Below, piece by piece: positions 4,135 to 61,742 of a stretch of 64,000 nucleotides of DNA. The DNA is from an uncultured Methanoregulaceae archaeon (GTDB lineage: Archaea; Halobacteriota; Methanomicrobia; Methanomicrobiales; Methanospirillaceae). The notes below the pieces were generated by a model that saw only the letters and a program-made list of their open reading frames with translations, was not told where the DNA came from and did no database searches. Position 1 is the stretch's first letter, and each line of letters starts with the position of its first letter. Where the stretch lies: the NCBI GenBank assembly GCA_963705255.1, contig OY970061.1, positions 128,001 to 192,000 of the forward strand. Direction: 5' to 3'. Made by a program: the position numbers and the translations under genes.

Positions 4135-4361
4135 GGGGTTGTGGCCTAGCCCGGTATGGCGACGGGCTCCAGCGGTCTTTGCGTTCTTTCGTGCTCGCAG
4201 ATGATGAACAATGGGTCTACTGAGTTGACCTTTCCGGCATCAGCCGGAGAGGGCAAGGAGAAACTCGTAAGAGTTTCGAATTGATGCGATGATGACCCGT
4301 TGGAGCACTGATGCATGTCGGAGAGACCCGTCGATCGTGAGTTCAAATCTCACCAACCCCA
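4135..4361 (+). tRNA. trnW: tRNA-Trp(CCA) with a 153-nt intron (4173-4325) at position 37/38
   Basis: Acceptor stem GGGGTTG/CAACCCC, anticodon stem ACGGG/CCCGT, anticodon CCA 4169-4171, T-arm GTGAG-TTCAAAT-CTCAC; bulge-helix-bulge with CTCC/GGAG helix and AGC and AGA bulges. Confidence 0.95.
4201..4311 (+). ncRNA. box C/D guide sRNA within the tRNA-Trp intron (guides 2'-O-methylation at C34 and C39)
   Basis: Box C ATGATGA 4201-4207, D' CTGA 4220-4223, C' ATGATGA 4289-4295, D CTGA 4308-4311; guides TGGGTCT and CGTTGGAGC pair with the pre-tRNA so that the +5 base faces C39 and C34; this arrangement is known from euryarchaeal tRNA-Trp. Confidence 0.9.
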
Positions 4362-38074: not shown

Positions 38075-38300
38075 CAGGTTTTTGGGTTTGGGAGAAATCA
38101 TCAGCGTTCGTTGCAGACACTCATGGGTAGTCCCTTCGTCGCAATGGTCCTCATATAATCGGAGACAATATTTCGAAAAGAATGGGAATTAAAAGAGGGT
38201 CATTCTCAAACCATTTGAAATTATAGGCAATTTTTTTTGACAGAATTTCCTCTGAAAATCGTAGTATTCAGATATCACCGGTAGTCGTTTCTCTTCATCA

Positions 38301-38585
38301 TCGCGATGAACGCCGCCGCAGTCCAAGATCTTCTGGCGAAAATCTTCTCCACAGCCTTTGGCTGTCCCCGACGGGGAGCCAGCCGTGACCAGATGGTCAG
38401 GGCTGGCTGAAGAAAATTCTATTAAGAATTTTCGACTCGCCCCCGCGGCGGTTCAACCACCTTGCCCTGCCGTGCCTCTTCTCTTACGAGATTCGGCAAG
38501 TCGAAGAACCTGATGGTTCTTCTCCCGTCTCATTCCTGCGGAATTCGACGCCTCGGAGAGGCCCTGAGGCGGGGAGCGCTCGTAA
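38301..38585 (+). repeat. dispersed repeat family A (core1 + core2), both cores expanded with hairpin modules
   Basis: TCGCGATGAACGCCGCCGC..CGCCCCCGCGGCGG and TGCCCTGCCGTGCC..CTCGGAGAGGCCCTGAGGCGGGGAGCGCTCGTAA. Confidence 0.85.
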
Positions 38586-38695
38586 CTGAACGATTTTCAC
38601 GTTTTGAAGTGAACTCAATCGGTTTATATCTGTATCCATCAAGCCGTTTTTCCGCGTGGTTGTTCCGGTCGGGAATCCCCACCGGTTACCTTTTT

Positions 38696-38905
38696 TCACG
38701 AGAACGCATACCACGCGAGCATACCGATACAGATGAGCGAAAAGATGAGGACCAGGGCAACATTGATGGCTTTTTCCTTCCCTGACATTGACTGCCAGTC
38801 GCCCTTCTGTCTCTTTGCGAGGTACCCTATGGCCAGCCCTATCCCGGTCCCGGCAAGGGAACCCAGCGCAATGACATTCAGGATGCTGAACAGGTCCGCA
38901 CTCAT
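38696..38905 (-). CDS. small two-TM membrane protein (69 aa)
   Basis: Two hydrophobic helices separated by KRQKGDWQSMSGKEK. Confidence 0.7.
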   Translation of the reverse strand: MSADLFSILNVIALGSLAGTGIGLAIGYLAKRQKGDWQSMSGKEKAINVALVLIFSLICIGMLAWYAFS

Positions 38906-38999
38906 ACGTTCACGGTATCCGGGTTGCCTCTCTTCAGATATAAATCCCCGTCAGGCGGGTGTGGACCCGGGCCCGTGTCCCTGAGGCCCGGCACCTGCG

Positions 39000-39968
39000 T
39001 CATAACGGGGCCCGCGGTCGGCGGACCATTCCCAGGGCGATGGCAATGCAGATGGCAAGCAGGGTTCCCGGGATGAACTCTGCCGCCTTGAACGGAATGG
39101 GCGGGACCGGGGATACCGGTGCAAGCACAATAGTCAGTGGCTGGTTCTCGCCGGCAACTACCGATACCGCCTGTTCGGTGGTGACAAATCCGTCATGGGA
39201 GACCGAGACCGTATGGTTGCCGGGCAGGATACCGGAGAGCGTTGAAGGGGAAGTCCCCGCATCTGCGCCGTCAAGAAGGATCCGGGCACCGGAGGGAGAT
39301 GCATTCACCGGAAGAAACCCCAGCTCCGGAGCAAGGGTCACGCTGACTTCCGCTGTCTGCCCGCTCCCGACCGTTACCGGGGTTGATACTTTCGTGTACC
39401 CGAACTTTGAGACGGTGACGTTATAGGTGCCGGGCTCCACCCCCTCTTTTGTTATGGGTGTACTCCCCAGATACTGCCCGTTGAAGACGACTGAAGCGTT
39501 GTCCGGTACGGAAAAGAACTGGACCGAACCCGGTACCGATGGCGTGGTTACTACGACATACGGTTTGAGGAGGGTGACCGATATCGTCCCGTAATCGGCA
39601 TCGCTCAGGTGGGAAAGGTCATCCGGGCCGTCGACCACCCAGATAGTGTATATCCCTTCGTCAAGGCGTCCCCCGGTATCTGCCGTATTCCATTCGTAGC
39701 TCCAGCGGTCGTTGCCGTCAACATCGACAACCGTGAACCCGCCCTGGTCAGCACGCAGGTTGATATTATCGAGTGCTACGCCATTAACCGGCAGGTTGGG
39801 ACCGGTCAGGAAGAGGTAGACCGACTGGCTGGCGGGCGAATATCCCGAGAGCGGTACGATGTCTCCCAGATAGGTCTGGATACCTGGCGCTGCCGAGACT
39901 CCGCTTACAAGGACAAGGCAGGCAACGATGACGAGTGCCGCGTATGCAGCGGTGCGGATGAATCCCAT
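39000..39968 (-). CDS. PEGA-domain surface protein
   Basis: Signal peptide; two PEGA repeats (SVPDNASVVFNGQYLGSTP..PGTYNVTVSKFGY); C-terminal TM. Confidence 0.88.
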   Translation of the reverse strand: MGFIRTAAYAALVIVACLVLVSGVSAAPGIQTYLGDIVPLSGYSPASQSVYLFLTGPNLPVNGVALDNINLRADQGGFTVVDVDGNDRWSYEWNTADTGGRLDEGIYTIWVVDGPDDLSHLSDADYGTISVTLLKPYVVVTTPSVPGSVQFFSVPDNASVVFNGQYLGSTPITKEGVEPGTYNVTVSKFGYTKVSTPVTVGSGQTAEVSVTLAPELGFLPVNASPSGARILLDGADAGTSPSTLSGILPGNHTVSVSHDGFVTTEQAVSVVAGENQPLTIVLAPVSPVPPIPFKAAEFIPGTLLAICIAIALGMVRRPRAPL

Positions 39969-40121
39969 ATGCCCTCATCTTGTTATTGCCGACATTTGGT
40001 TAAGCCTTTTGGATTCCGTAGATCGTAGCCCCGGACCATAAACCCCGGAGGACAGCGATGAAAAAAGACTGCCGATCTGCACATCTTCAGGCACACGAAT
40101 CACTTTCTTATTAATACCCTC

Positions 40122-41544
40122 ATGTCTCACCTAACATCAGACACTACCATGCACCAGCCGGATATCAGGAAGGTGGCGCTCTTTATCGCGGTTCTCTCGG
40201 GTTTTATAACGCCGTTTGACCTCTCCGCAGTCACCATCGCCCTGCCGTCCATCGGCTCGGAATTCGCTATGGATGCAGTCACCCTTTCCTGGGTGTCGAC
40301 CGCCTACCTGCTCGCGGCCGGGGTCTTTCTCGTCCCTTTCGGCAGGATCGCTGATATATACGGGCGGAAAAAAGTGTTTGTCGCCGGGCTCCTTCTCTTC
40401 ATCATCGCATCTGCCTGCATGGTCCTCTCGGTTTCTTCGGTCATGATCATCCTCCTTCGGGTGCTGCAGGGGACAGGTGCGGCGCTGATATTCGGCACGG
40501 CCGTCGCGATCCTCACGGAGGTCTCACCGGTTGCCGAACGGGGCCGGGCTCTGGGAATTTATACGACCGCTGTCTATCTCGGGCTCTCCCTGGGGCCATT
40601 CCTCGGCGGTTTCCTGGTCCAGCACTTCGGATGGCGGAGCCTCTTCCTCGTCAATGTCCCCATCGGGCTTTTTACGATCGCCCTGATCCTGCTCTACCTG
40701 AAAGGGGAGTGGGCAGACTCGCGGGGCGAGACGTTCGATCTTGGCGGCGCCGTCCAGTACCGGCCTTGCCCTGATCTGCATCATGTACGGGTTCTCGCTG
40801 CTGCCTGATACCGGGGGTTTTCTCCTCCTCGTGGCGGGTACCGCGATACTGGTATGGTTTGTGGCACGGGAATTGCGGGTCTCCCACCCCCTGATGGATA
40901 TCGGCCTCTGGACGAAGAACCGGGCCTTCGCCTTCTCCAACCTTGCCGCACTCATCAACTACAGTGCGACTTTTGCCGTCACGTTCTTCCTGAGCCTCTA
41001 CCTCCAGTATGTCAGGGATATTGATCCCTGGTACGCGGGGACCATCCTCATCATCCAGCCGGTCATGCAGGCCGTCCTCTCTCCCTATGCCGGGCGGCTC
41101 TCGGACCGGATCCCTCCCGGGTGGATCGCATCGGTCGGCATGGGGCTGACTGCGGTGGGGCTTGTGGCGCTCGCGTTTCTCGACAATACCACGCCGGTCC
41201 CTGTGCTCATGCTCATTCTCGCGGTGATCGGGATCGGGTTCGGCCTTTTTTCATCGCCGAACGTCAATGCCATCATGAGTTCGGTACAGAAAAAATATCT
41301 CGGGATCGCGTCGGGGACCCTAGGCACGATGCGTCTCGTGGGCCAGATGCTCTCCATGGGTATTGCGACGATGATCCTGGCAATCTACATCGGCAGGACC
41401 CAGATCACCTCTTCCCAGTACGGGCAGCTCCTCTCGGGCATGAAATCCGGCTTTCTGATCTTTTCCGTCCTCTGCCTCGTCGGTATTGCGTTCTCTCTTG
41501 TCCGGTGCGCACGTACCGATGAGTCTGAAGCGTGCGTGCGCTGA
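40122..41544 (+). CDS. MFS transporter (DHA2/EmrB-like, 14 TM), split by a +1 indel near 40760
   Basis: VPFGRIADIYGRKK motif A, LGPFLGG, WRSLFLVNVPIG, FSSPN. Confidence 0.9.
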
Positions 41545-41676
41545 CCCGGCGTCCCTGGTTGTCTCTGCAGATTGTTTCTGGTGCTGTAGTTAAAAAAGGA
41601 ATTCCCGGAAGGGCTGACTGTTCATTTTTCTGCCCGGGCACTTCATCCCGTTCTGCCGGGGCCCGGAAAAAATCAT

Positions 41677-41964
41677 CTATGCCTTGCGTGTCTCTTTCAG
41701 GATCAGGCTGCTCTGGAGATGCCGGTACAGGGCGATGATGACCAGGACATAGGCAAGGGTCCTTATGATAATGAGCGGGATCATCAGCGGCACCTTCAGG
41801 CCGGCAAGGGTCGCTGCATGCGAGATACCGAAGAGGCCGAATGCCGCCCCGATATACAGGGGCAGGTTATGCCTGCTCTTTTTGAAACAGAGACATGCAA
41901 GGATGACGATGATGATACACAGTACAAGATTGATGAACGTGATGGGGTCCCATTCCAGTGCCAT
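41677..41964 (-). CDS. small three-TM membrane protein
   Basis: Hydrophobic helices; GLFGISH motif. Confidence 0.7.
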   Translation of the reverse strand: MALEWDPITFINLVLCIIIVILACLCFKKSRHNLPLYIGAAFGLFGISHAATLAGLKVPLMIPLIIIRTLAYVLVIIALYRHLQSSLILKETRKA

Positions 41965-42135
41965 AGACTACACCTGCATGATATTCCACGTAACTTTTCT
42001 TTAGGGTAACGATCTGTTCCCGGTATTTTGCCGGGCTTCTCTCTCGAGATTTTTTCGTCGGAAAAAATAATTATTCCAAGCGGGGGGCCGGCAGGGGATA
42101 CGACACTTCTCGCTAAGGACGAGCCCCTCCCCGGG

Positions 42136-42261
42136 CTACAGCGACTGCTCCCATGTATGGCCGCAGTCATTGCAGAGGCACACGACGATCGTCTTGTTCT
42201 CTACCGTCTTGCAGTCCGTCCACTCCGTATTTTTTGAACTGCACTTCGGACAATTTGACAT
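42136..42261 (-). CDS. 41-aa zinc-ribbon microprotein (TFS/RpoM C-terminal-like), absent from the ORF track
   Basis: Hand translation gives MSNCPKCSSKNTEWTDCKTVENKTIVVCLCNDCGHTWEQSL*, with CPKC and CNDCGHTW. Confidence 0.8.
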   Translation of the reverse strand: MSNCPKCSSKNTEWTDCKTVENKTIVVCLCNDCGHTWEQSL

Positions 42262-42356
42262 GGTTTTTGCAATGCGACGCAGTGGTAATATTGTTTACGT
42301 ACTTGCTCTGATCTCTATGAAAAATTGTACCCCGGGCCGGGCCGGCAGGCCGGAGA

Positions 42357-43019
42357 TCAGGTGCCGATTCCGACACTTTCACCCGGGTTCAGGACCTGCA
42401 CCTTCAGATCGCTCGTCCGCTCGACCGCTTTTTTGAATGCGTGCGGATCGGCAGCTATCCTGTCCCAGGTGTTGTAATGGATCGGGATCACCAGCTTTGC
42501 CCCGATATAATTTGCCGCCATCATCGCTTCCGCACCACCCATCGTGTACCTCCCCCCGATCGGGAGCAGGGCGACATCCGGGTGGTAGAGGTCACCGATC
42601 AGCTTCATATCCGAGAAGAGGGCCGTGTCCCCGGCATGATAGACCCTTACGTTGTCCATGCCGATGACGAAGCCGGCTGCCGTCCCCCCGAACACCGGTA
42701 TCCCCCCCTCGTCGATGGAACCGGAATGGAGTGCAGGTGTCATCGTGAAGGTCACCCCGTCGACCGTGAGGGTCCCGCCGATATTCATGCCCTCCGAGGG
42801 GACGCCCCTGCTTTTGAGGAATCTGGCGATCTCGGATATCGCCACGGTCTTCTTTGCGAGCGAGACCGTCTCGCCCATGTGGTCGTTATGCCCGTGAGTG
42901 ACCGCGACGATATCAGGATTCGTCCCGGCAACACTTCCGCCTTCGATAAACGGGTCGATAAGGACTTTTTTTGTGCCGGAGAGGAGCACACAGGAATGGC
43001 CAAGGTACGTAAGCTGCAT
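42357..43019 (-). CDS. UPF0173 metal-dependent hydrolase (metallo-beta-lactamase fold)
   Basis: LGHS, THGHNDH, YHAGDTALFSDM, LLPIGG, IPIHYNTW. Confidence 0.93.
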   Translation of the reverse strand: MQLTYLGHSCVLLSGTKKVLIDPFIEGGSVAGTNPDIVAVTHGHNDHMGETVSLAKKTVAISEIARFLKSRGVPSEGMNIGGTLTVDGVTFTMTPALHSGSIDEGGIPVFGGTAAGFVIGMDNVRVYHAGDTALFSDMKLIGDLYHPDVALLPIGGRYTMGGAEAMMAANYIGAKLVIPIHYNTWDRIAADPHAFKKAVERTSDLKVQVLNPGESVGIGT

Positions 43020-43132
43020 ATATGCAGATCCGGTTACTCTCGGATGAAATTTACCATCTGCACATGCAATGATAAAAACCGGGGGCGGAGTGCCAGTAAA
43101 AAGGGACGGACGTTGTATCGGATACCGATCCT

Positions 43133-43741
43133 TTACGTCACATCGATCAGCTCAGCTTCGGTGATGTCGATGGAGTCGCCAAGACTGTCGGCGGTAGCGC
43201 TCCGGGTCATCTGCTCGGAGAGGTCCCGGTCCTCCATCACATCACGGATCCGGTCGATGTACTGGTCAATGGTCGGGTCTTCCTGCTCTTCGATCACGTG
43301 CCGGTACTCGCGGAGGGTCGAAGGGCTCACGCCGAGTTCTTCAGAAACCTCCTTCATGGTCTTACCGGACTCGATCAGCTCCTCCATCTTCACCTTGTCA
43401 AAGGGCATCCTGAAGTCGAGCTCCCGGAAGAGTTTGAGTCTCACGCGGGCCCGTGCGACCGTCTTGCTCAGCTTCTCGTCCCCCAGCTCGCGGGCAATTT
43501 CCGTGTCATTCTTTCCTGCATAGAATGACGTCACGAGCTTTGCGAGCTGGATCGGTTTCAAGGAGGTCTTGAAGATCCCCTGTTCCGTGATCTCTCTCAT
43601 AACGAGAGCGACCTCGCGTTCGATCGCGTCGCTGTCTCTCAGGGTTCCATGGATATTCTTCATGGGCTCGACGATCTTCGTCTTGCCTGACATGGTACTG
43701 AAGAGTTTCAGAAGATGTGCCTTGCGTTTGTCTTCGGTCAT
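43133..43741 (-). CDS. conserved archaeal HTH-containing protein
   Basis: NDTEIARELG and KEVSEELGVSPSTLREY HTH-like segments. Confidence 0.75.
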   Translation of the reverse strand: MTEDKRKAHLLKLFSTMSGKTKIVEPMKNIHGTLRDSDAIEREVALVMREITEQGIFKTSLKPIQLAKLVTSFYAGKNDTEIARELGDEKLSKTVARARVRLKLFRELDFRMPFDKVKMEELIESGKTMKEVSEELGVSPSTLREYRHVIEEQEDPTIDQYIDRIRDVMEDRDLSEQMTRSATADSLGDSIDITEAELIDVT

Positions 43742-44023
43742 TGCATACCCCGTATTGGGATTAGGATATACAATACTTCGTCAACTATTTAATGCTATCT
43801 TTATGCGTTGTTTGACCAAAAGACCTTTAAATTGGTGTTTGCCATTCATACATCCGGGTAGGGTTCCGTGCGCAGATCGCCCGGTATTTCCGTGTTTTTG
43901 CCGCCCGCCTTATGGTCCCTTGTATGCACGGCCGGGTACAGAGAAGGAGTCTTGGTGGAGGGAGGAGAGTCTTTTTGTCGCCAGTCGTGCAACTCTATAA
44001 GAGACGAGTAATTCGTGATCACC

Positions 44024-45746
44024 ATGAGCGATGTCTTTGAGAACGTGATGGAGCTTGCCAGACGCCGCGGGTTCATCTGGCCCACCTCGGAGTGCTACGG
44101 GGCGGTGGCCGGCTTCATCGACTACGGCCCCCTCGGTGCGATGATGAAACGGCGTATCGAGAATATCTGGCGGGATTTTTATGTCATCCGGGAGGGCTAT
44201 TACGAGATCGAGTGCCCGACCATTGCGCAGGAGGCAGTTTTTATCGCCTCCGGCCATGTGGCAGGGTTCGCCGACAAGATGTGCCAGTGCCCGCACTGCA
44301 GGGAATACCTCCGGGCGGACCATGTTGCCGAAGGCGGGGGGATACGGAACGCGTCCACGATGAAGAACGAGGAACTCTCCGCGGCACTCGCCACCTGCAG
44401 ATGTCTGGCCTGCGAAGAGGTGCTCGGCACGGTCGAGGTCTTCCAGTTCAACCTGATGTTCAGGACCATGATCGGCCCGGGCTCGCAGAGGACCGGCTAC
44501 CTGCGGCCCGAGACGGCCCAGGGGATGTTCGTCGATTTTACCCGGTTGCTCCGGTTCTATCGCGACAAACTCCCGTTCGGCGCTGTCCAGATCGGGAAGT
44601 CCTACCGCAACGAGATCTCGCCCCGGCAGGGCATGATCCGTCTCCGGGAGTTCACGCAGGCGGAAGCGGAGATCTTCGTCCACCCCGACGAGAAGGACCA
44701 CCACCCGTCGTTCCAGCGGTACGCAAACTACAGGATGCCGCTCCTCACCTCGGACCAGCAGCTCGCCTGCAAGGAGGCGGTCTCCCTCTCGATGCGGGAA
44801 GCCGTGGACAAGGGGGTGATCGCAAACGAGTACGTGGCGTATTACGTGGCCCTCACCCACGAGCTCGATGATCACGATCGGGATCAAACCGGAGCGGCTC
44901 CGCTTCCGGCAGCACCTGCCGGACGAGCTCGCCCATTACGCGAACGACTGCTGGGACGCAGAAATCTTCTCACCGAGGTTCGGCTGGGTCGAGACGGTCG
45001 GGATCGCGGACCGCACCGATTACGACCTGAACGCCCACGCGAAGCAGAGCGGAACCCCGATGACGGTCTTCATCCAGTATAAGGAGCCCCGGAAAGTCCC
45101 CCGGCGGCGGATCATCCCCAACATGGGGGTGCTCGGGAAGCAGTACCGCACCAAGGCGAAGGCGATCTTTGCCGCCCTCGCGACGGCAACCCCCGACAGC
45201 TCGGGAGCCGACGTGGTCGTGGACGGGGAGAAGATCCACATACCGCCCGACCTGTTCGAGGTCCGGGACGAGATCGTAGAAGTCCGTGGTGAAGATATCG
45301 TCCCGCACGTGATCGAACCCTCGTACGGGATCGACCGGATGTGCTACGCAGTCCTCGAGCAGGCCTATGACGAGGACACCGCGGATGGCGAGAAACGGAT
45401 CGTGATGCGGTTCTCGCCGAACGTCGCGCCTGTCCAGGTCGCTGTTTTCCCCCTTATGTCCCGCGACGGTCTCGACACGATTGCCCAGGAGATCGCGGGG
45501 AAACTCCAGAAGAAGGGGATCCTTGCGGAATACGACGACAGTGGTGCGATCGGGCGGCGTTACCGGCGGCAGGACGAGATCGGGACACCCTTCGCGATTA
45601 CCGTCGATTACGATACGAAGGAGAACAACACCGTCACACTCCGGGACCGGGACAGCATGAGACAGGTCCGGGTTTTTATCAATAAGCTGCCGGAGGTCGT
45701 CGGGTCGCTTGTTGAGGGGAACCTGACGTTTGGGGAGATAGAGTGA
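44024..45746 (+). CDS. glyS: glycine--tRNA ligase (archaeal/eukaryotic alpha2 type), split by a +1 indel near 44867
   Basis: DYGPLG, LRPETAQG, YRNEISPRQGMIRLREFTQAEAE, IEPSYGIDR, IGRRYRRQDEIGTP. Confidence 0.97.
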
Positions 45747-45890
45747 ACATAGTAAAATTTTAAAAAATGTTATCGCCACTGAGCAATTCTTTTAGGAGAG
45801 AAGGAGAAGTTTTTCAGTTTCATCTGTTTTGTAGCGTGAAAATTTTCCTTATCGTCTGATTTATAACCCGGCATTGATGATACAATAATT

Positions 45891-46274
45891 ATGAGCGTTC
45901 CGACGGTTACGGCAACACCGATCAAGGATTTTATCCAGTCTGCGATCATGCAGATCAAAGAATCACTCCCTAACGATGCAAGGATCGATGGAATCATCAA
46001 TATGAAAATAACTACCATCGTTCAAAGAGGAAAAGGTGGAGGGATCGATCTAAAAGTTTTGGAATGGGGCGCCGATGCCTCGACAAGTCAAACTCAAGAA
46101 CTTATCATACCGATCAGAATTCTCACCGACACCGGACTTACGCTTGAAAAAGCTATGAAAGCTGAATTTGAATCACGAATAGCGAAAGCAGAGACGGAGA
46201 GGAAGTTGGAGGAGCTAAAATCTTCGAACATTGGAAAACCATCTGTCCGTGTAAGCTCCACATCGTCTCGTTAG
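45891..46274 (+). CDS. hypothetical protein, Trypco2-like
   Basis: IKDFIQSAIMQIKESL..KITTIVQRGKGGGIDLKVLEWGADASTSQTQELIIPI; lower GC than its neighbours. Confidence 0.6.
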   Translation: MSVPTVTATPIKDFIQSAIMQIKESLPNDARIDGIINMKITTIVQRGKGGGIDLKVLEWGADASTSQTQELIIPIRILTDTGLTLEKAMKAEFESRIAKAETERKLEELKSSNIGKPSVRVSSTSSR

Positions 46275-46327
46275 CGAATTAACGTTTTTTTCCAATATTT
46301 TGCAACCTGAAACTTTCTGAGAATAAG

Positions 46328-46480
46328 ATGGGGGCTGATGCCCCCATACCCCCCTTTGCGATGGACGCCGCCGCCCCGAAGGCCGCCCCGCGGCGGCCTC
46401 ACTTGCCTACAAATCCCCAACCCGTTAATCTGCCCCGCCGTGCCCCGTGAGGGGCCCTGAGGCGGGGAGCCCTCGCAAAT
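46328..46480 (+). repeat. dispersed repeat family A, minimal (empty) copy
   Basis: GCGATGGACGCCGCCGCCCCGAAGGCCGCCCCGCGGCGG and TGCCCCGCCGTGCCCC-GTGA-GGGGCCCTGAGGCGGGGAGCCCTCGCAAAT, preceded by ATGGGGGC-TGAT-GCCCCCAT. Confidence 0.85.
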
Positions 46481-46641
46481 CTCAGACATTTTCCCCTGGT
46501 CAGGCACAAAGATATTGTTTAAATTCCCAATTCCAATGCCAATTCTTCAAAATCGCGGGATCTCACGTTTTTCCGTTTACCCTTCTTGATCTGGTCCATA
46601 AGATCCCTATCGGACAAGACCTCTACGGGACTGAAGGAGAA

Positions 46642-46849
46642 TTAAAAATCATCTTCGGTCAATCCGGCAATGGTAATACAACGGTGAACAATGCCAGGTT
46701 TTAGTTCATTGTGCTGCGGGATTGACAGTTCATCGAAAACATCATCTTTCTGCATGATGACATGGCTCCCAGTCTGACGGACAGCAGTCCAGACCCTTTC
46801 GGTGAAGGACTTTGACCATTTCCTTTCCGGAGAGAACGGGGAGCTTCAT
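46642..46849 (-). CDS. hicA: HicA toxin (one +1 indel near 46793), absent from the ORF track
   Basis: MKLPVLSGKEMVKVLHRKG / WTAVRQTGSHVIMQKDD..SIPQHNELKPGIVHRCITIAGL; ATGA overlap with hicB. Confidence 0.85.
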
Positions 46850-47058
46850 GACTCGACAAGGATCTCCCGGAGATTCGGAAGTGACTTGGCGTGACGGGCG
46901 TTGTGGACTTCAAGGTATACTGGAAGAACTTCCCGGATATTTTTCAGCGCCTCCTCCTCAGTCTCTCCCTGGGACATGCATCCCGGGAGACCGGGTACGA
47001 AGACTGAGAAACCACCGCCTTCTTCTGGTACCAACTGAACCTTGATCTTCATTATCAT
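46846..47058 (-). CDS. hicB: HicB antitoxin
   Basis: EEGGGFSVFVPGLPGCMSQGETEEEALKNIRE. Confidence 0.92.
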   Translation of the reverse strand: MIMKIKVQLVPEEGGGFSVFVPGLPGCMSQGETEEEALKNIREVLPVYLEVHNARHAKSLPNLREILVES

Positions 47059-47120
47059 GTTCTTCTACCTCCGGCATTATCTTGTTTTTGGATGTTCTTA
47101 TTCAAAGCACATATCGTACT

Positions 47121-47411
47121 TGCCCCGCCGTGCCTCGAAGTCCTTACGACCTTCTCACATCTCGTCCCTTTGGGACTCAATAACTCGAAAAACCCGCTGG
47201 TTCTTCGAAGAACTCTGTTCTTCTCATCTCTCGAGTCTGATGACTTTCGAGATTCTCCCGTCTCATCCCTCCGGGATTCGAAGAGTCGAAGAACCTTAAC
47301 GGTTCTTCTTGATTTCGTGGTTCTGATGAATCACTCATAAGTCGAAGTTGCACTTCTCCACAGCCCTGCGGGCTGTCCTCGGAGCGGCCCTGAGGCGGGG
47401 GACCCTCACAA
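47121..47411 (+). repeat. repeat family A core2 expanded by about 240 nt (about 10 hairpin modules)
   Basis: TGCCCCGCCGTGCC .. modules .. CTCGGAGCGGCCCTGAGGCGGGGGACCCTC. Confidence 0.88.
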
Positions 47412-48440
47412 TCAAAATGAAATAGCTATGATACTATTTTCAAAAATTCTGAACCTTTCCGGATTTTCCGGAATTTTACAATTCTGTTCAGCATTTCGAT
47501 AAAAAAAATTTTCAGAATAACTAAAAAAATTCCCGAAAAAATTTCCGGATCCTCCCGGGATTTTTAAAAAAAATATTTTTCCGGAATTTTTTGGATTCAA
47601 AAAAAAATTCCAAAACTTTTCACAGTAACTTTTTCTGAAAAATATTTGCTCGTAAAAAAAAGTTTCCGTTCGTTCCGAAAAATTTCCAAAACATGGAAAA
47701 TTTCACCGAAACGGCTGGGGAATAATCCGCTAATCTCTGAGGAGATCCCCGGCTCCCCCATCCATGCCTAAAACCATACCTTTTCTCAATGTGGTAACCA
47801 AAATACGCCTTTATCATCGTTATTTCGCCAAAATATCCGTAAATACCCCCGACTTTATTAACGGGCCTTAGAGGCCTTTTCTTTGGCAGATCTCATGAGA
47901 AACATACCATAGAAGGCATCAAATGAAAACTCACCCATCTATGGGGGTCGATTTCATTTGCAATTTACCGTTATTTTTACAATCGGAGTTATTATAGAAG
48001 ACTTTATTGAAAGCGCAAATCCGGGCATTTTACGGGCTTTTCCGACATCGGCTTCCGGGAAACAGAACCCGTAAATGGCCCGGATTCGGCGCGGAAGGGG
48101 CTTGGAGAGATGAGCCTCCAAGGATCTGATTTTGGGGAATAATGGTGGGTAAATTGACGGTGGGGAATGGTATACCATTTCGATAGTACCATGCTGCAGT
48201 AAATGAATACCGGACTGTTCCGTCCCGGACTTTCTAAAATTTTCAAATTTGAAAATTTTTTTAAATTTTTCCGGATCCTTCCGGAATTTTTTGAAAAATA
48301 TTTTTCCGGAATTTTTTTTAATTTGTACGGTGCCGGGGCCAAGCCCATCCAAAAAAATTTCCGGCCCGACCCGGCTTCGCAAATCGGATCCCTCCCCCAC
48401 CCTTCCCTATATTACCCTCCGCAACCAAACCTCTCACCAG
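47412..48440. repeat. about 1 kb non-coding A/T-tract and CCGG low-complexity region with an imperfect direct repeat of about 50 bp
   Basis: TTTCCGGATCCT(C/T)CCGG(G/A)ATTTTT..AAAAATATTTTTCCGGAATTTTTT at 47542-47592 and 48268-48316. Confidence 0.7.
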
Positions 48441-48444
48441 CCAT

Positions 48445-50684
48445 ATGACCTTCATCAGTCACCCCCTCGTAAAGCCGGACAGCATTGAATCGCGGGAGTA
48501 CCAGCTCTCGGTCGCGATGCGTGCTTTGGACGGCAACACGATGGTGATCCTGCCGACGGGCCTCGGCAAGACAGCCGTGGCGCTGCTCGTCGCCGCCTCC
48601 CGGCTCTATAACGAGGGGGGAAAAGTACTGATGCTTGCCCCGACGAAGCCGCTCGTCGAGCAGCACCTCCGCTATTTCGAACGCTACCTGCTCGCAAAAA
48701 CTTCTCCCGGCTCGGATGCCTCTCCCTTCGTCATGTTCACCGGCGAATCCCCGCCGGATGAACGGACTGCTGACTGGAACCGGGCGACTGTAATCCTTGC
48801 AACCCCGCAGGTTATCAAGAATGATGTCATCGGGGGACGGTACTCGTTAAAAGATGTCTCGCTCCTTGTCGTGGACGAATGCCACCGTGCGGTGGGGAAC
48901 TATGCCTACGTCTTCCTGGCCCAGCGCTACCTGGCTACTGCTGACAAGCCGCTCCTCCTCGCCATGACCGCTTCGCCGGGAGGGGCACCGGAAAAGATGC
49001 AGGAAGTCTGTGCCAACCTCGGGATCACCCGGATCGAGTCCCGGACTGAGAACGATCCCGATGTCCGCCCGTACGTCTTCGAGCGGGACCTCGAGTATAT
49101 CATGATTGAGCTGCCCCTGAGCTCAGGTCGGCTATCGATGTCATCAACGCACTCATCGAGAACCGGCTTGCCCTTCTTGCATCCCTGCACTTCACCGTGC
49201 CGAAACGCGACCGGCTCACGATGAAGGCGCTCAACGCGATCAACGCCCAGATCCAGCAGCGGATCGCGAACCGCGATCCTGCCGCGTATTCCGCGGCCTC
49301 GGTCTACGCGGAGTGCATGAAGCTCAAGCATGCCGTCACCCTTGCGGAATCGCAGGGGAGCGAGGTGCTCAAAGGCTACCTTGCAAAACTCATCGCAGAA
49401 GGAACGGGCGCCGGTGGCAGCAAGGCAAGCCAGCGTCTGGCACAGGACGTGTCGTTCCGCGAGCTCTTTATAGGCTCCACTGGCTGGACAACGGAGCTGC
49501 ACCCGAAGCCGGGGATCGCGCTCGGGTTTGTGAAGGAGCAGCTGGAAACGCACCCGGACAGCAGGATCATCATCTTCGCAACCTACCGGGATACGGTCCA
49601 GCTCCTCGTGGATTTCCTCGCAAAACACGGGATTGCGAGCGAGCGGTTCGTCGGCCAGGCCACGAAGGATGCGGAGAAGGGGCTCAGCCAGAAGAAGCAG
49701 ATCGCGGCGCTGGACCGGTTTCGCAGGGGTGAGTTCAGGGTTTTGATTGCAACGTCGGTCGGGGAGGAAGGGCTTGATGTCCCGTCCACGGACCTGGTGA
49801 TCTTCTACGAGGCGGTGCCCTCGGAGATACGGTCCATCCAGCGCAAAGGCCGGACCGGCAGGTCGGGGGCCGGGAGAGTGGTTGTGCTGGTGACAAAAGG
49901 GACCTCGGACGAGGTGTTCCGCCACGTCAGCCAGGCCAAGGAGAAGATGATGCACAAGAGCATGCGCACGATGGGAAGCATGACATCGGCACCGCCAGTG
50001 CCCGTCACCGTTGAACAGTCGAGCATCGACGAATTTACCCCCGCGGACCAGCGGATGATCATTATCGATGACCGCGAGACGTCCTCCAAAGTCGTGGAAG
50101 TACTCTCGAACCTCGGGGCGTCGATCCGTGTCGAGCGGCTGGCGCACGGGGACTATGCCATCGGGGACCGGATCCTCGTCGAGCGCAAGACCGCCCGGGA
50201 CTTTGTCGACACGCTCATCAACCGCGACCTCCTCGGGCAGGTCAAAGAGATGGCCGAGGCAGTCACGCGCCCGGTGCTGATCATCGAGGGCGGGGACCTC
50301 TACACCCAGCGGGACGTCCACCCGAATGCGATTCGGGGCGTGCTTGCCGCACTCACCGTGGATATGGGGGTATCGTTGCTCTTTACCCGGGACGAGCAGG
50401 ACACCGCCCAGATGCTCTTCGTGCTCGCGAAGCGCGAGGAGGGCGAGCGGGGGGAGCGCAAGGTCCACCCGCACAAGTCGCACCGCTCCCTGAAGGAGGA
50501 GCAGGAGTATATCGTCTCCTCGTTCCCGGAAATTGGTCTTAGAAATGCCCGGCTATTGCTGGCGCATTTCGGTTCGATTCAGGGGATTGTGAATGCTTCC
50601 CTGGAGGAGCTGGTTGCGGTGCGGGGGATCGGGGAGAAGACGGCGGGGAAGGTGTACCAGCTGTGCCGGAGGGGGTATAATTGA
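48445..50684 (+). CDS. hef: Hef helicase-nuclease (SF2 DExH helicase + ERCC4/XPF nuclease + HhH), split by an indel near 49116
   Basis: LPTGLGKT, DECH, TASPG, QRKGRTGR, GDY..VERKT..D, tandem HhH. Confidence 0.95.
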
Positions 50685-50834
50685 ACTCGCTTTTTAGCTC
50701 TTCAGTAAGGCTCAAAAAACTTTGAGGTTCTTTGGGATCCGGCACATCATGCCTCCACTCCCACCACAATTTCATCGGCTGTCATGGGTTTTCTACAGAT
50801 CCAATATGACAAGAGGAGTACACTTTTCCAGAGA

Positions 50835-50994
50835 TCGCGATGAACGCCGCCGCCCCCGGCGGGGCGCCCCCGTGGCGGATCAATTACTTAGAAGAAAAAT
50901 GGTAACCCGCCCCGCCGTGTTCGAAGTTCCTGCGAACTTCTCGACCTCCTTCGTCGGTCCTCGGAGAGGCCCTGAGGCGGGGGATCCTCGTAAA
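50835..50994 (+). repeat. dispersed repeat family A (core1 empty, core2 with a short insert)
   Basis: TCGCGATGAACGCCGCCGCCCCCGGCGGGGCGCCCCCGTGGCGG; GCCCCGCCGTG-T-TC[GAAGTTC-CTGC-GAACTTC]TC..CTCGGAGAGGCCCTGAGGCGGGGATCCTCGTAAAT. Confidence 0.85.
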
Positions 50995-58919: not shown

Positions 58920-59145
58920 ATGAGGGTGACCCCCTCTCTCCCCCAGAGGGGGAGGCAACCCAAGGGGAGCACCCCCCTTGACCCCCACCCCCTCTTTGGA
59001 AAATTTTTTATTTTCCTTCTGAGTGACTATCCTATTTTGGGGGATGCCCACGCGGCGGGGGCGGAATCTGAAGGGTCCGTCAGGACCCTGAAGATGAGAA
59101 GAACTCATCAGAGTTCTTCGAAGCACCATGTGCTGGAGCCCCCAA
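58920..59145. repeat. GC-rich multi-hairpin element with GA-flanked modules
   Basis: A GGGGGC..GCCCCC stem (59057-59143) encloses GA[ATCT GA[AGGGTCC-GTCA-GGACCCT]GA AGAT]GA[GAAGAACTC-ATCA-GAGTTCTTC]GA[AGCAC-CAT-GTGCT]. Confidence 0.75.
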
Positions 59146-61742
59146 GAGCGTAGACCTGTGAAATTGAGTAATATCTGGAAAAATAATTAGAACGATAATT
59201 CATGAACCAGATCTCCGGCTTGTCTTTTCTTGCTGGTCCTCCCTCTCCCCATATGAAAAGGAAACTATCCGGTCAGTGACCCCAGTTACTGACATCCAAA
59301 CGATAATCCCTAAGAAAAAAGTTATCCGGCAGGGGTCCCGCTCTCGGCAGGCATCTCGCCGTTCCCCGGATCCGCCGGTACGACGGCGATCCCGACGATC
59401 TTGTCATTCTCGTCGAGGCGCATGATCCTGACGCCTTTTGTCCCGCGTCCGATGATCCGGATCTCGCTGACCGGGGTCCGGATGACAACGCCCGACGCGG
59501 TCATGACAAAGATCTCGTCGGTCTCGGAGACGGCCCGCGACTCGATGACTACGGCGTCGCGTTCGAGCACCATGGTGCGGACTCCCTGCGTTGCCCGCCC
59601 GTGGCCGCGGAAGTCGTCGAACTCGGTCCGCTTCCCGAAGCCGACATCGGAGATGGTGAGGAGGGTGTGGTCGTTATCCACGAGGGTGATCGCGCAGACC
59701 GTGTCCTCCTTGACCCGGAACCGCATGCCGATAACCCCTGACGCGTTCCGTCCCACCACCCTGACGCTCTCTTCGTGAAAGCGGAGGCCGTACCCGAAGC
59801 GGGTGGAGAGGACCACCTCACGGGTGTTGTCGGTCGTGATGACGTCCACGAGCTGGTCGCCCTCCTTGAGCCGGATTGCGTTCGTGCCGGTAGACCGCGG
59901 GTTGGCGAACTCGTCCTGCGGCACCTTGATGACCTGCCCCTTCTTCGTGGCGAAGAGGAGGTACCGGTCCTTTCGGAACTCGCGGATGGGGATGACGGTC
60001 GTGATCACCTCGTCCTTCAGGTTGAGGAGGTTGACGATCGGCTTGCCCTTGGCAACGCGGGAACTCTCGGGGATCTGGTAGACCTTGAGCCAGTAGACCC
60101 GCCCGATGTTCGTGAAGCAGAGGAGATAGTCCTTCATCTCCGCGGCAAAGACCGAGCTCACGACATCGTCTTCCTTCGTGGTCATCCCGGTGACGCCGTG
60201 GCCGCCCCGCTTCTGTTTGCGGTAGGAGTCGAGGTCCATCCGCTTGATGTAGTTGGTCTTCGTGATCGAGACGAGAACGGTCTTGTCCTCGATGAGATCC
60301 TCGGTCGAGAGCTCGCTGGTGTCGAGGGCGATCTGGGTCCTCCGCTTGTCGCCGAACTTTGCCGCGATCTCGCCCGTCTCGCGCCGGATCTCGTCCCTGA
60401 TGTTCGCCTCGCTCGCAAGGATTGTCTCGAGCCGTCTGATCTCGGCCTCGAGCCCCTTCTTCTCATCCGTGATCTTCTGCTGCTCGAGGGCAGCGAGACG
60501 GCGGAGCTGCATCTGGAGGATCGCGTTCGCCTGCGGCTCGGTAAGGCCGAACCCGGCAATGAGCGCGAGCCGTGCGTTGTCCACGGTATCGGATCCCCGG
60601 ATAGCCGCAATGATCTTGTCGATCTTCGCGAGGGCGATGAGCAGCCCGTTCAGGATGTGGACCTTCTCCTGCGCCTTCCTGAGGTCGAACTCGGACCTGC
60701 GCCGGATCACCTCGATCCGGTGCTGGACGAAGTGGCCGAGGAGGGCGTGGAGGTTGAGGATCTTCGGCTGGCCGTCTACGATGGCGAGGTTGGATGCCCA
60801 GAAACTGGACTCGAGCGCGGTATTCTTGTAGAGGTTGTTCAGGATGACCGGCGACATCGTGCCCTTCCGGGAGCTCGAAGACGACCCGTATGCCCTCCTT
60901 GTCGGACTCGTCGCGGATGTCGGAGATACCGTCGATCCGCTTCTCCTTCACCATCTCGGCGATCCCGGTGATCCACTGGGCCTTGTTCACCTGGTACGGG
61001 AGCTCGGTGACGATGATCCGGTCGCCCCGGTTCCCGCCATCGTTCTCCTCGATCTCCGCGACCCCGCGGACGACCACGCGGCCCTGGCCGGTGGTATAGA
61101 TGTTCTTGACGCCCTCGACGCCCATCAGGATGCCGCCGGTCGGGAAGTCCGGGCCCGGCATGATCCGGAGGAGGTCCTCGACCGGGACCTCCGGGTTGTC
61201 GAGATAGGCCGAGACCGCCGTGCAGACCTCCCCGAGGTTGTGCGGGGGCATCTTCGTCGCCATGCCGACCGCGATCCCGTCCGTCCCGTTGACGAGCAGG
61301 TTCGGGATCTTTGCCGGGAGCACGGTGGGCTCCTGGAGCGACTCGTCGTAGTTCGGGATGAACTTCACGGTGTCCTTGTCGAGATCCTCGAGAAGCGCTT
61401 CCGCGTACGGGAAGAGCCGGACCTCGGTGTACCTGCTCGCTGCTGCGGTGTCGCCGTCCACGGAACCGAAGTTGCCCTGCCCCTGGACCAGCATGTGGCG
61501 GTACGAGAAGGGCTGGGCCATCTTGACAATCGTGTCGTAGATGGACGCGTCTCCGTGCGGGTGGTACTTACCCATCACGTCCCCGACCACCCTCGCGCTC
61601 TTCCTGGTGGGCTTGTCGCTCGTGTTGCCCATGTCCCACATGCCGTACAGCGAACGGCGATGAACGGGTTTGAGGCCGTCGCGGACATCGGGAATGGCAC
61701 GCTGGATGATGACCGACATCGCGTAGTTGATGAACGAGGTCT

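Follow-up and report, generated by a model that had tools for sequence, protein, structure and literature searches.

An intergenic repeat family of Methanoregula and the hairpin modules found within it

The DNA considered here, referred to as the window, is a stretch of 64,000 nucleotides (nt) of contig OY970061.1 (positions 128,001 to 192,000) from an uncultured Methanoregulaceae archaeon, whose genome, G000, is that of a Methanoregula in a single contig of 2.60 Mb with 54.6% G+C. Four copies of a dispersed repeat, family A, lie in this window, two of them on either side of a hicB segment and one downstream of a Hef-like gene. The repeat is made of two conserved parts, core1 and core2, which together form one intergenic element of ~100–140 nt, and in several copies the hairpins of these parts are interrupted by extra DNA. 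This fill occupies fixed sites, is independent of the repeat that hosts it and turns over fast between close relatives, and at one locus its gain can be polarised. The evidence presented below shows the fill to be a family of its own, composed of small hairpin modules and foreign to family A.

Family A in the window and in its genome

As claimed in the initial annotation of this DNA, core1 (GCGATGRACGCCGCCGC...GYGGCGG) precedes core2 (CCCYGCCGTG...GGCCCTGAGGCGGGG..CTCRYAA) on the + strand, core1 starting at 38303, 46358 and 50837 and core2 ending at 38585, 46480, 47412 and 50994, always on the same strand; the core2 copy at 47121 stands without core1. The reported series of core2 lengths was also recovered. 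Measured from stem to stem (CCCCGCC to GGCGGGG), the spans are 35 nt (46431), 73 nt (50909), 110-115 nt (38463) and 278 nt (47121), and in all four copies the place of the extra DNA is between GCCGTG and CTCGGAG. Three of the four copies are located between convergent genes, according to the crude open reading frame (ORF) calls made for this analysis.

Element 1 has a core1 (38303..38451, +) that is filled on both sides of its central CCCC-GAC-GGGG hairpin, at 38320-38437, with TC-type hairpins on the left and AGCCAGCC..GGCTGGCT plus a GA-type hairpin on the right, a variant that recurs in paralogues. Its core2 (38463..38585, +; 110-115 nt) contains three modules, and an identical fill is present at genome position 295253. 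The element is followed by a 3′ extension, ACGATTTTCA..GTGAAC.. (38586..38650, +), and the DNA between 38301 and 38592 folds with a z-score of -4.98. Element 2 (46358..46480, +) consists of an empty core1, a linker and an empty core2 of 35 nt, and is preceded by a hairpin called P0 (GATGGGGGCTGATGCCCCCATACCCCC; 46327..46355, +). Next to it, a segment of 640 bp (46481..47120, -) sits between two core2 copies and contains hicB (46846-47058; HicB_lk_antitox PF15919, E = 1e-8); a hicA-like frame, frameshifted by eye, is found inside the same segment at ~46600-46850 (-). Element 3 (47121..47412, +) is the core2 without core1, with a span of 278 nt, ~ten hairpin modules and a DNA fold z-score of -4.05. 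Finally, element 4 (50837..50994, +), downstream of the Hef-like gene, has an empty core1, a linker and a core2 with a span of 73 nt, whose fill comprises one GAAG hairpin and GACCTCC..GGTC.

Across G000, the core2 15-mer GGCCCTGAGGCGGGG occurs 39 times, compared with 0 occurrences of its reversed control. Searching with up to two mismatches gave 59 matches, from which nine devoid of the rest of the element were discarded, leaving a set of 50 copies. All of these lie outside called genes, as defined by the ORF caller of this analysis. Their core2 is empty (34-35 nt) in 24 copies, filled (span of 73-278 nt) in another 24 and represented by its right half only in the remaining two; core1 is present in nearly all copies and decayed in some. 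At the scale of the genus, the 15-mer was found in 16/18 sampled congeners and in 0/12 genomes of other genera.

The architecture of the element is well defined. The core1 hairpin is built from CCGCCGC/GCGGCGG enclosing CCCC-GRC-GGGG, and that of core2 from an outer stem, CCCCGCC/GGCGGGG, the stretch within it being composed of GTG, the inner stem GCCYC/GRGGC (loop of 3-4 nt) and CCCTGA. Many copies also have a hairpin upstream, GATGGGGGCTGATGCCCCC-ATACCCCC, the linker can pair ATTACC with GGTAAT, and the P0 hairpin precedes core1 in 8/50 G000 copies and in most copies of the congener G010. The 3′ extension is present in about half of the copies (24/50) by a loose one-mismatch match to ACGATTTTC, a count in which at least two tags, including those of window elements 2 and 3, are apparently spurious by eye. 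A 53-nt inverted copy of this extension, on the 5′ side, exists in one G000 copy only (622314-622366).

Base pairing was counted in an alignment of 27 distinct empty copies from several species, with window element 2 as the first row. In this alignment, 98% of the cells are paired in the core1 stem (P1), 96% in the core2 outer stem and 98.5% in the core2 inner stem, where one pair covaries (UA 14, CG 11, GC 2, unpaired 0). A closing helix, NNGATG/CNTCNN, is paired in 65% of the cells and is clearer in G010 (AACGATGA/TCATCGTT). A K-turn or C/D-box reading of the GATGA...CTGA motifs was rejected, since by inspection the 5′ strand opposite CTGA-GGCGGGG is GTG-CC and not NNN-GA, and no Rfam C/D model matches the element.

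As regards the neighbourhood of element 4, the Hef-like gene (48445-50684, +) has DEAD, Helicase_C, ERCC4 and HhH domains and is broken up into two ORFs that overlap (48445-49224 and 49197-50684). Given this split, the frameshifted hicA and a marker completeness of 89.5% for a genome in one contig, the assembly probably contains indel errors. The region upstream of the gene (47500-48400) is an A/T-rich block with repeated TTTCCGGA..CCGG..AAAATT motifs, in which a 72-nt pair (47526-47597 and 48252-48323) is 72% identical. In the related genome G084, the Hef-like gene and family A are separated by ~700 bp of extra DNA, A/T-rich and ORF-like (locus L001, 4482-5180), which is not found in G000.

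Hairpin modules at fixed sites

The commonest module of the fill is a hairpin of the form (G)TC-GAAG...CTTC-TC. Among the 234 sites of G000 defined by the flanks TCGAAG..CTTCTC, the inner stem is fully paired, with a loop of at most 6 nt, in 170, compared with 5.8% in a shuffled control. These modules have 51 distinct inner stems, a favoured TGAT loop and no strand bias along the chromosome. A second hairpin of variable sequence usually follows, so that the unit measures ~45-60 nt. The fold energy over 36 nt is -5.3 kcal/mol downstream of a module, -3.7 upstream and -2.9 in random intergenic DNA, and the spacings between modules peak at 50-61 nt.

Modules are found not only in family A, but also inside other repeat families and alone in unique intergenic DNA. 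Such other module-filled host families were noticed in the window at 59028-59189, in G000 at 253931-254370 and 547895-548099, and at many more sites; one of these families is bounded by ATGGGGGATGCCC.AGCGGCGGGG ... CCCCCAAGAGCG and another begins with GAGGGTGACCCCCTCTCTCAAGTCGAAG. A further observation concerns sR3, a C/D-box small RNA (RF01133, 57.5 bits) encoded in the window at 4197-4313 (+), which has a 62-nt two-hairpin insert between its D′ and C′ boxes, similar to modules that are reversed in orientation. In the genus as a whole, ~27 sR3 matches are long (99-117 nt) and ~65 are short (53-61 nt), and in some genomes both forms occur together, ~1.1 kb apart.

Within family A, the same three sites are filled in all four module-rich genomes compared. 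For core2, the table of insertion points peaks at GTG|CC, with consensus positions 12-13 accounting for 36/57 filled copies (the automatic table obtained for core1 is too noisy for use). The rule drawn from element 1, namely TC-type fill to the left and GA-type fill to the right of the core1 centre, describes one widespread variant of core1 fill and is not general, TC-type modules standing on the right of core1 at 533153 and 1409334 in G000, at L115 and L127 in G084 and at L204 in G113. The last of these loci (G113:C20:17030-17524) also has the sole core2 copy seen with fill 3′ of the apex. This fill, located after CCTCGGAG, is made of reversed (GA-type) modules, a hint that their orientation depends on the arm of the hairpin and not on the strand.

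The composition of the fill is variable. The GAAGAACC hairpin stands before the CCGTCTCAT module at 166560 and after it at 175386, showing that module order is not constant. Fills are also common to paralogues, those at 166560 and 295253 being the same and one of 163-171 nt being present in five copies, and the fill at 115540 corresponds to the 3′ part of that at 112336. Head-to-tail arrays of five GAAG-hairpin units were observed in another genome, G037 (C44:2036-2271, C54:1886-2151 and C64:1362-1607), with periods of 53, 59 and 55 bp, respectively.

For counts across genomes, the module was represented by the pattern TCGAAGAN{8,16}TCTTCTC. This pattern has at least 20 copies in 21/108 Methanoregula congeners and at most nine in the other 87, and its distribution over the remaining genera of the order is patchy. 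Family A is entirely empty in two module-poor genomes, with 8/8 copies in G003 (one module hit) and 12/12 fetched copies, out of the 16 that exist, in G010 (two hits). Among the module-rich genomes, core2 is filled in 24/50 copies in G000 (138 hits), in ~28/42 in G084 (149 hits; an automatic measure with at least one miscall), in 2/10 in G046 (156 hits), where one core1 is filled in addition, and in 1/9 distinct copies in G113 (144 hits), together with two core1. As these module-poor genomes have empty copies only, and as the fill sites are fixed, the short copies did not arise from a long master by deletion, an alternative that the initial annotation had itself raised and that is contradicted here.

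Turnover at orthologous loci

The behaviour of elements and modules was followed by comparison of G000 with G084, a syntenic relative that is 92-97% identical over the region. Thirty G084 copies could be placed in G000 with both flanks and 19 of the alignments were inspected. Only one locus, L112, is in the same state in both genomes. Clean family A indels between them measure 45, 49, 53, 58, 59 and 61 nt and each consists of two hairpins; a 63-nt unit is located in the hairpin loop of a repeat family other than A, and strict mining of indels from colinear BLAST matches gives seven events in all. The idea of an ordered allelic series that grows one module at a time is not supported in this form, two hairpins (45-61 nt) being the unit of the clean indels between orthologs. 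In addition, the proposed check for polarity of addition was carried out and found none, because additions occur on the 5′ as well as on the 3′ side of existing fill.

The one polarised gain is that of element 4 (window 50835), where core2 is empty in G084 (L001), in L020 and in L071, and contains two modules in G000; the empty state in the three others shows a two-module gain in the G000 line. At L098, where the flanks are 98-100% identical, the core1 fill differs on both sides (95 + 61 nt), and at L124 the inner stem switches along with the fill; judged from the alignments, both loci would represent conversion-like replacements. The 3′ modules are replaced at L110. The support for site-specific accretion as first proposed is partial: foreign fill enters at fixed sites, but fills spread as blocks too.

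Whole elements vary as well. Their orientation is opposite in G000 and G084 at L109, L116 and L121, and they are missing from G000 at L096, L100, L101 and L111, the last with a 7-bp direct repeat at its borders. Conversely, element 1 with its flanks (window ~38085-38658, ~575 bp) is missing from G084. At L097, four more distant outgroup genomes are without family A, so that polarity cannot be set there.

Elements 2 and 3 deserve separate mention, as G084 has a single element where G000 has element 2, the 640-bp hicB segment and element 3. This G084 element, the ortholog of element 2, has a filled core1 and a core2 with two modules, which are orthologous to two of the ~ten in G000; the 3′ flank of element 3 and two of its modules are thus shared with it. 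The hicB segment is syntenic in G038 and G086 (82-83% identity) and for this reason is considered old; it is missing from G084, most likely deleted there through recombination of the core2 copies on either side. Insertion of the segment as a site-specific cassette at core2, in the manner of an integron attC site, was rejected on the ground of its synteny and age in G038 and G086; no search aimed at an integron integrase was made.

Proposed origin of the two layers and relation to known repeats

The explanation preferred here, with a probability of roughly 0.6, is a superposition of two layers of repeat DNA, both selfish or semi-selfish, namely family A and the independent hairpin modules. [quoted passage not shown] Its parts would be an optional P0, core1, an A/T-rich linker (often with the ATTACC/GGTAAT hairpin) and core2, loosely closed by GATGA/TCATC; it comes and goes between close relatives, flips its orientation and would be a substrate for recombination. 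The second layer would be an independent module family that underwent a burst in some Methanoregula lineages only, and whose members would settle at the apices and junctions of hairpins in structured repeats already present, among them the three fixed sites of family A. Modules may enter as non-autonomous insertions that seek single-strand hairpins and leave no target duplication; fills may then spread among family A copies via gene conversion or recombination, with only those insertions surviving that fall in structurally tolerant loops.

Several points weigh against this explanation. In G084, a 638-bp composite insertion is bordered by the 7-bp direct repeat CAAAACC, and five T's flank a 258-bp mosaic; no target-site duplication was seen at module insertions in the inspected alignments, nor at other presence/absence sites. 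For two G000-specific two-hairpin units, no identical full-length donor was found in G000, their hairpins matching different loci. Gain is polarised at a single locus and the other differences could be losses, gain and loss being indistinguishable for most of them. Several species that are ~80% identical in protein have retained family A downstream of the Hef-like gene, and this retention, together with the covariation in core2, fits a selected structure or function equally well as a selfish repeat. Lastly, no candidate mobilising enzyme emerged from the examination of Y1, TnpB-like and GIY-YIG proteins. Y1_Tnp (PF01797) gave 0 matches in G000, in a search in which control genomes matched; it is present in 5/108 congeners, all of them module-poor (at most three module hits each), and the rejection of mobilisation by Y1/RAYT follows from its absence from every module-rich genome. 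Likewise rejected were the three TnpB-like genes of G000, whose flanks are without modules, and a small GIY-YIG protein, which occurs in 6/108 genomes, is present in neither G084 nor G046 and is uncorrelated with modules. One tyrosine recombinase gene was found in G000. BLAST searches with the terminal extension revealed no pair enclosing a gene and no autonomous element with the same ends.

It could also be that modules are never free and that recombination alone distributes them, through gene conversion, homologous or microhomology-mediated recombination, tandem slippage and template switching at stalled hairpins, all among repeats already in place. Such processes leave the first arrival of a module in an all-empty family unexplained, and they do not readily produce two-hairpin units in unique intergenic DNA, or the similar insert in sR3, where flanking repeat homology is missing; nor do they provide the contiguous donor that G000-specific units lack. 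They do account for the block swap of core1 fill on both sides at L098, between nearly identical flanks, for the inner stem that changes with the fill at L124, for the identical fills of paralogues (166560 and 295253, and the five copies of 163-171 nt), for microhomology of the CTCG type at fill borders, for tandem arrays with a 53-59-bp period and for the G084 deletion between two core2 copies, and they agree with the failure to find a transposase. However, the bimodal split of the 108 genomes into 21 rich and 87 poor resembles lineage bursts, and recombination as the only process is considered unlikely.

The good conservation of stems in 27 diverse empty copies, with one covarying pair, leads to another interpretation, in which family A functions as a structured RNA or 3′-end element (a terminator, a stabiliser or a small RNA), with the fills as expansion segments that are tolerated or adaptive. 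The position of the copies is relevant in this respect. With the same ORF caller, convergent gaps hold 20/50 G000 copies, compared with 312/1460 (21%) of intergenic gaps, an enrichment at convergent gene ends that speaks for such a function, and divergent gaps hold 7/50, fewer than their share; tandem gaps contain 12 sense and 11 antisense copies and hence reveal no strand bias, which speaks against it. Retention downstream of the Hef-like gene in several species, T-runs shortly after the core2 tail in many copies (seen by eye, uncounted) and fold z-scores from -2.8, the value of an empty copy as RNA, to -5.0 are favourable as well, but no Rfam family matches the elements at gathering score, weak sub-threshold matches being the only ones obtained. 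In the closing helix, a hand tally over 35 distinct copies found about as many G-U as A-C mismatches, which would fit a DNA palindrome better than a one-strand RNA. In view of elements that are present, absent or inverted between genomes 92-97% identical, and of outgroups without the element at L097, a functional RNA appears improbable as the explanation.

As for short copies being deletion derivatives of one fixed long element with constant module order, the sub-string relation of some fills (115540 within 112336) and the deletion-prone nature of hairpin DNA count for little against the emptiness of 20/20 examined copies in two module-poor genomes, the predominance of the empty state (24/50) with its own covarying inner stem, the inconstant module order, the presence of the same modules in unrelated repeat families and the gain that outgroups show at window 50835, so that this possibility can practically be set aside.

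Turning from these alternatives to known systems, comparison of the two layers with bacterial repeats reveals both likenesses and differences. REP palindromes have a conserved GTAG or CGTC tetranucleotide at their head. Unlike them, family A has no such head in its 27-copy consensus, its stems being flanked by GATGAAC, GTG and CTGA. REP sequences with their bacterial interspersed mosaic elements (BIMEs) and the REPIN-RAYT systems of Proteobacteria (PMC3116915 and PMC2817692) are, like family A, short GC-rich intergenic palindromes in tens of copies with enrichment at gene ends, and share with it the formation of mosaics with other motifs, variation between close strains and persistence at some orthologous sites. 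The mosaics differ in kind, since those of REP/BIME alternate REP orientations, whereas in family A a second repeat family is nested in the hairpins. Family A further differs from these systems by its archaeal host and by the absence of a Y1/RAYT transposase from G000 and from any module-rich congener.

The small dispersed repeats (SDR) of Nostocaceae were reportedly termed ‘very small mobile repeated elements’ by Elhai et al. in 2008, a work cited in PMC5861425. Like the modules, they measure tens of nt, are non-coding, occupy specific short sites, also inside other repeats, and have no known enzyme. Compared by description only, they belong to another phylum and have other sequences, whereas the modules are 45-61-nt pairs of covarying hairpins that target hairpin apices. 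Prokaryotic MITEs (Correia, ERIC/RU and RPE; PMC10969869 and PMC3184786) are non-coding, multi-copy, intergenic and stably folded, as is family A, in which short terminal complementarity, the single copy with a 53-nt inverted extension and one composite insertion with a 7-bp direct repeat may be MITE-like. No matching autonomous insertion sequence was found for family A and its target duplications are inconsistent, its main feature being the second family nested at fixed sites. The Methanoregula repeats are undescribed in the literature searched; the accessible text of a MITE census (PMC11602168) does not contain the name ‘Methanoregula’, and its supplements, which lay outside the search, may list Methanoregula MITEs.

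Tentatively, the modules might be an undescribed kind of archaeal micro-mobile DNA, without terminal inverted repeats, target duplication or an HUH/Y1 enzyme, that homes, on single-stranded DNA, to the apices and junctions of existing hairpins; a fold-back or template-switch process coupled to replication may be responsible and may also keep the stems perfectly paired. If this were true, repeats, and functional small-RNA genes too, would acquire expansion segments through these modules.

How REP-like and very small repeats move and persist is an open question even in bacteria. Methanoregula offers a natural system in this regard, in which host and modules are cleanly separable, congeners exist with and without modules, and orthologous sites are found empty and filled. 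With the Y1/RAYT transposase, the sole REP mobiliser known, ruled out, the genus is suited to finding the activity responsible. It also makes it possible to ask if modules seek out hairpin apices or are simply tolerated there, and in what way insertions of this kind alter the 3′ ends of archaeal genes and small-RNA genes.

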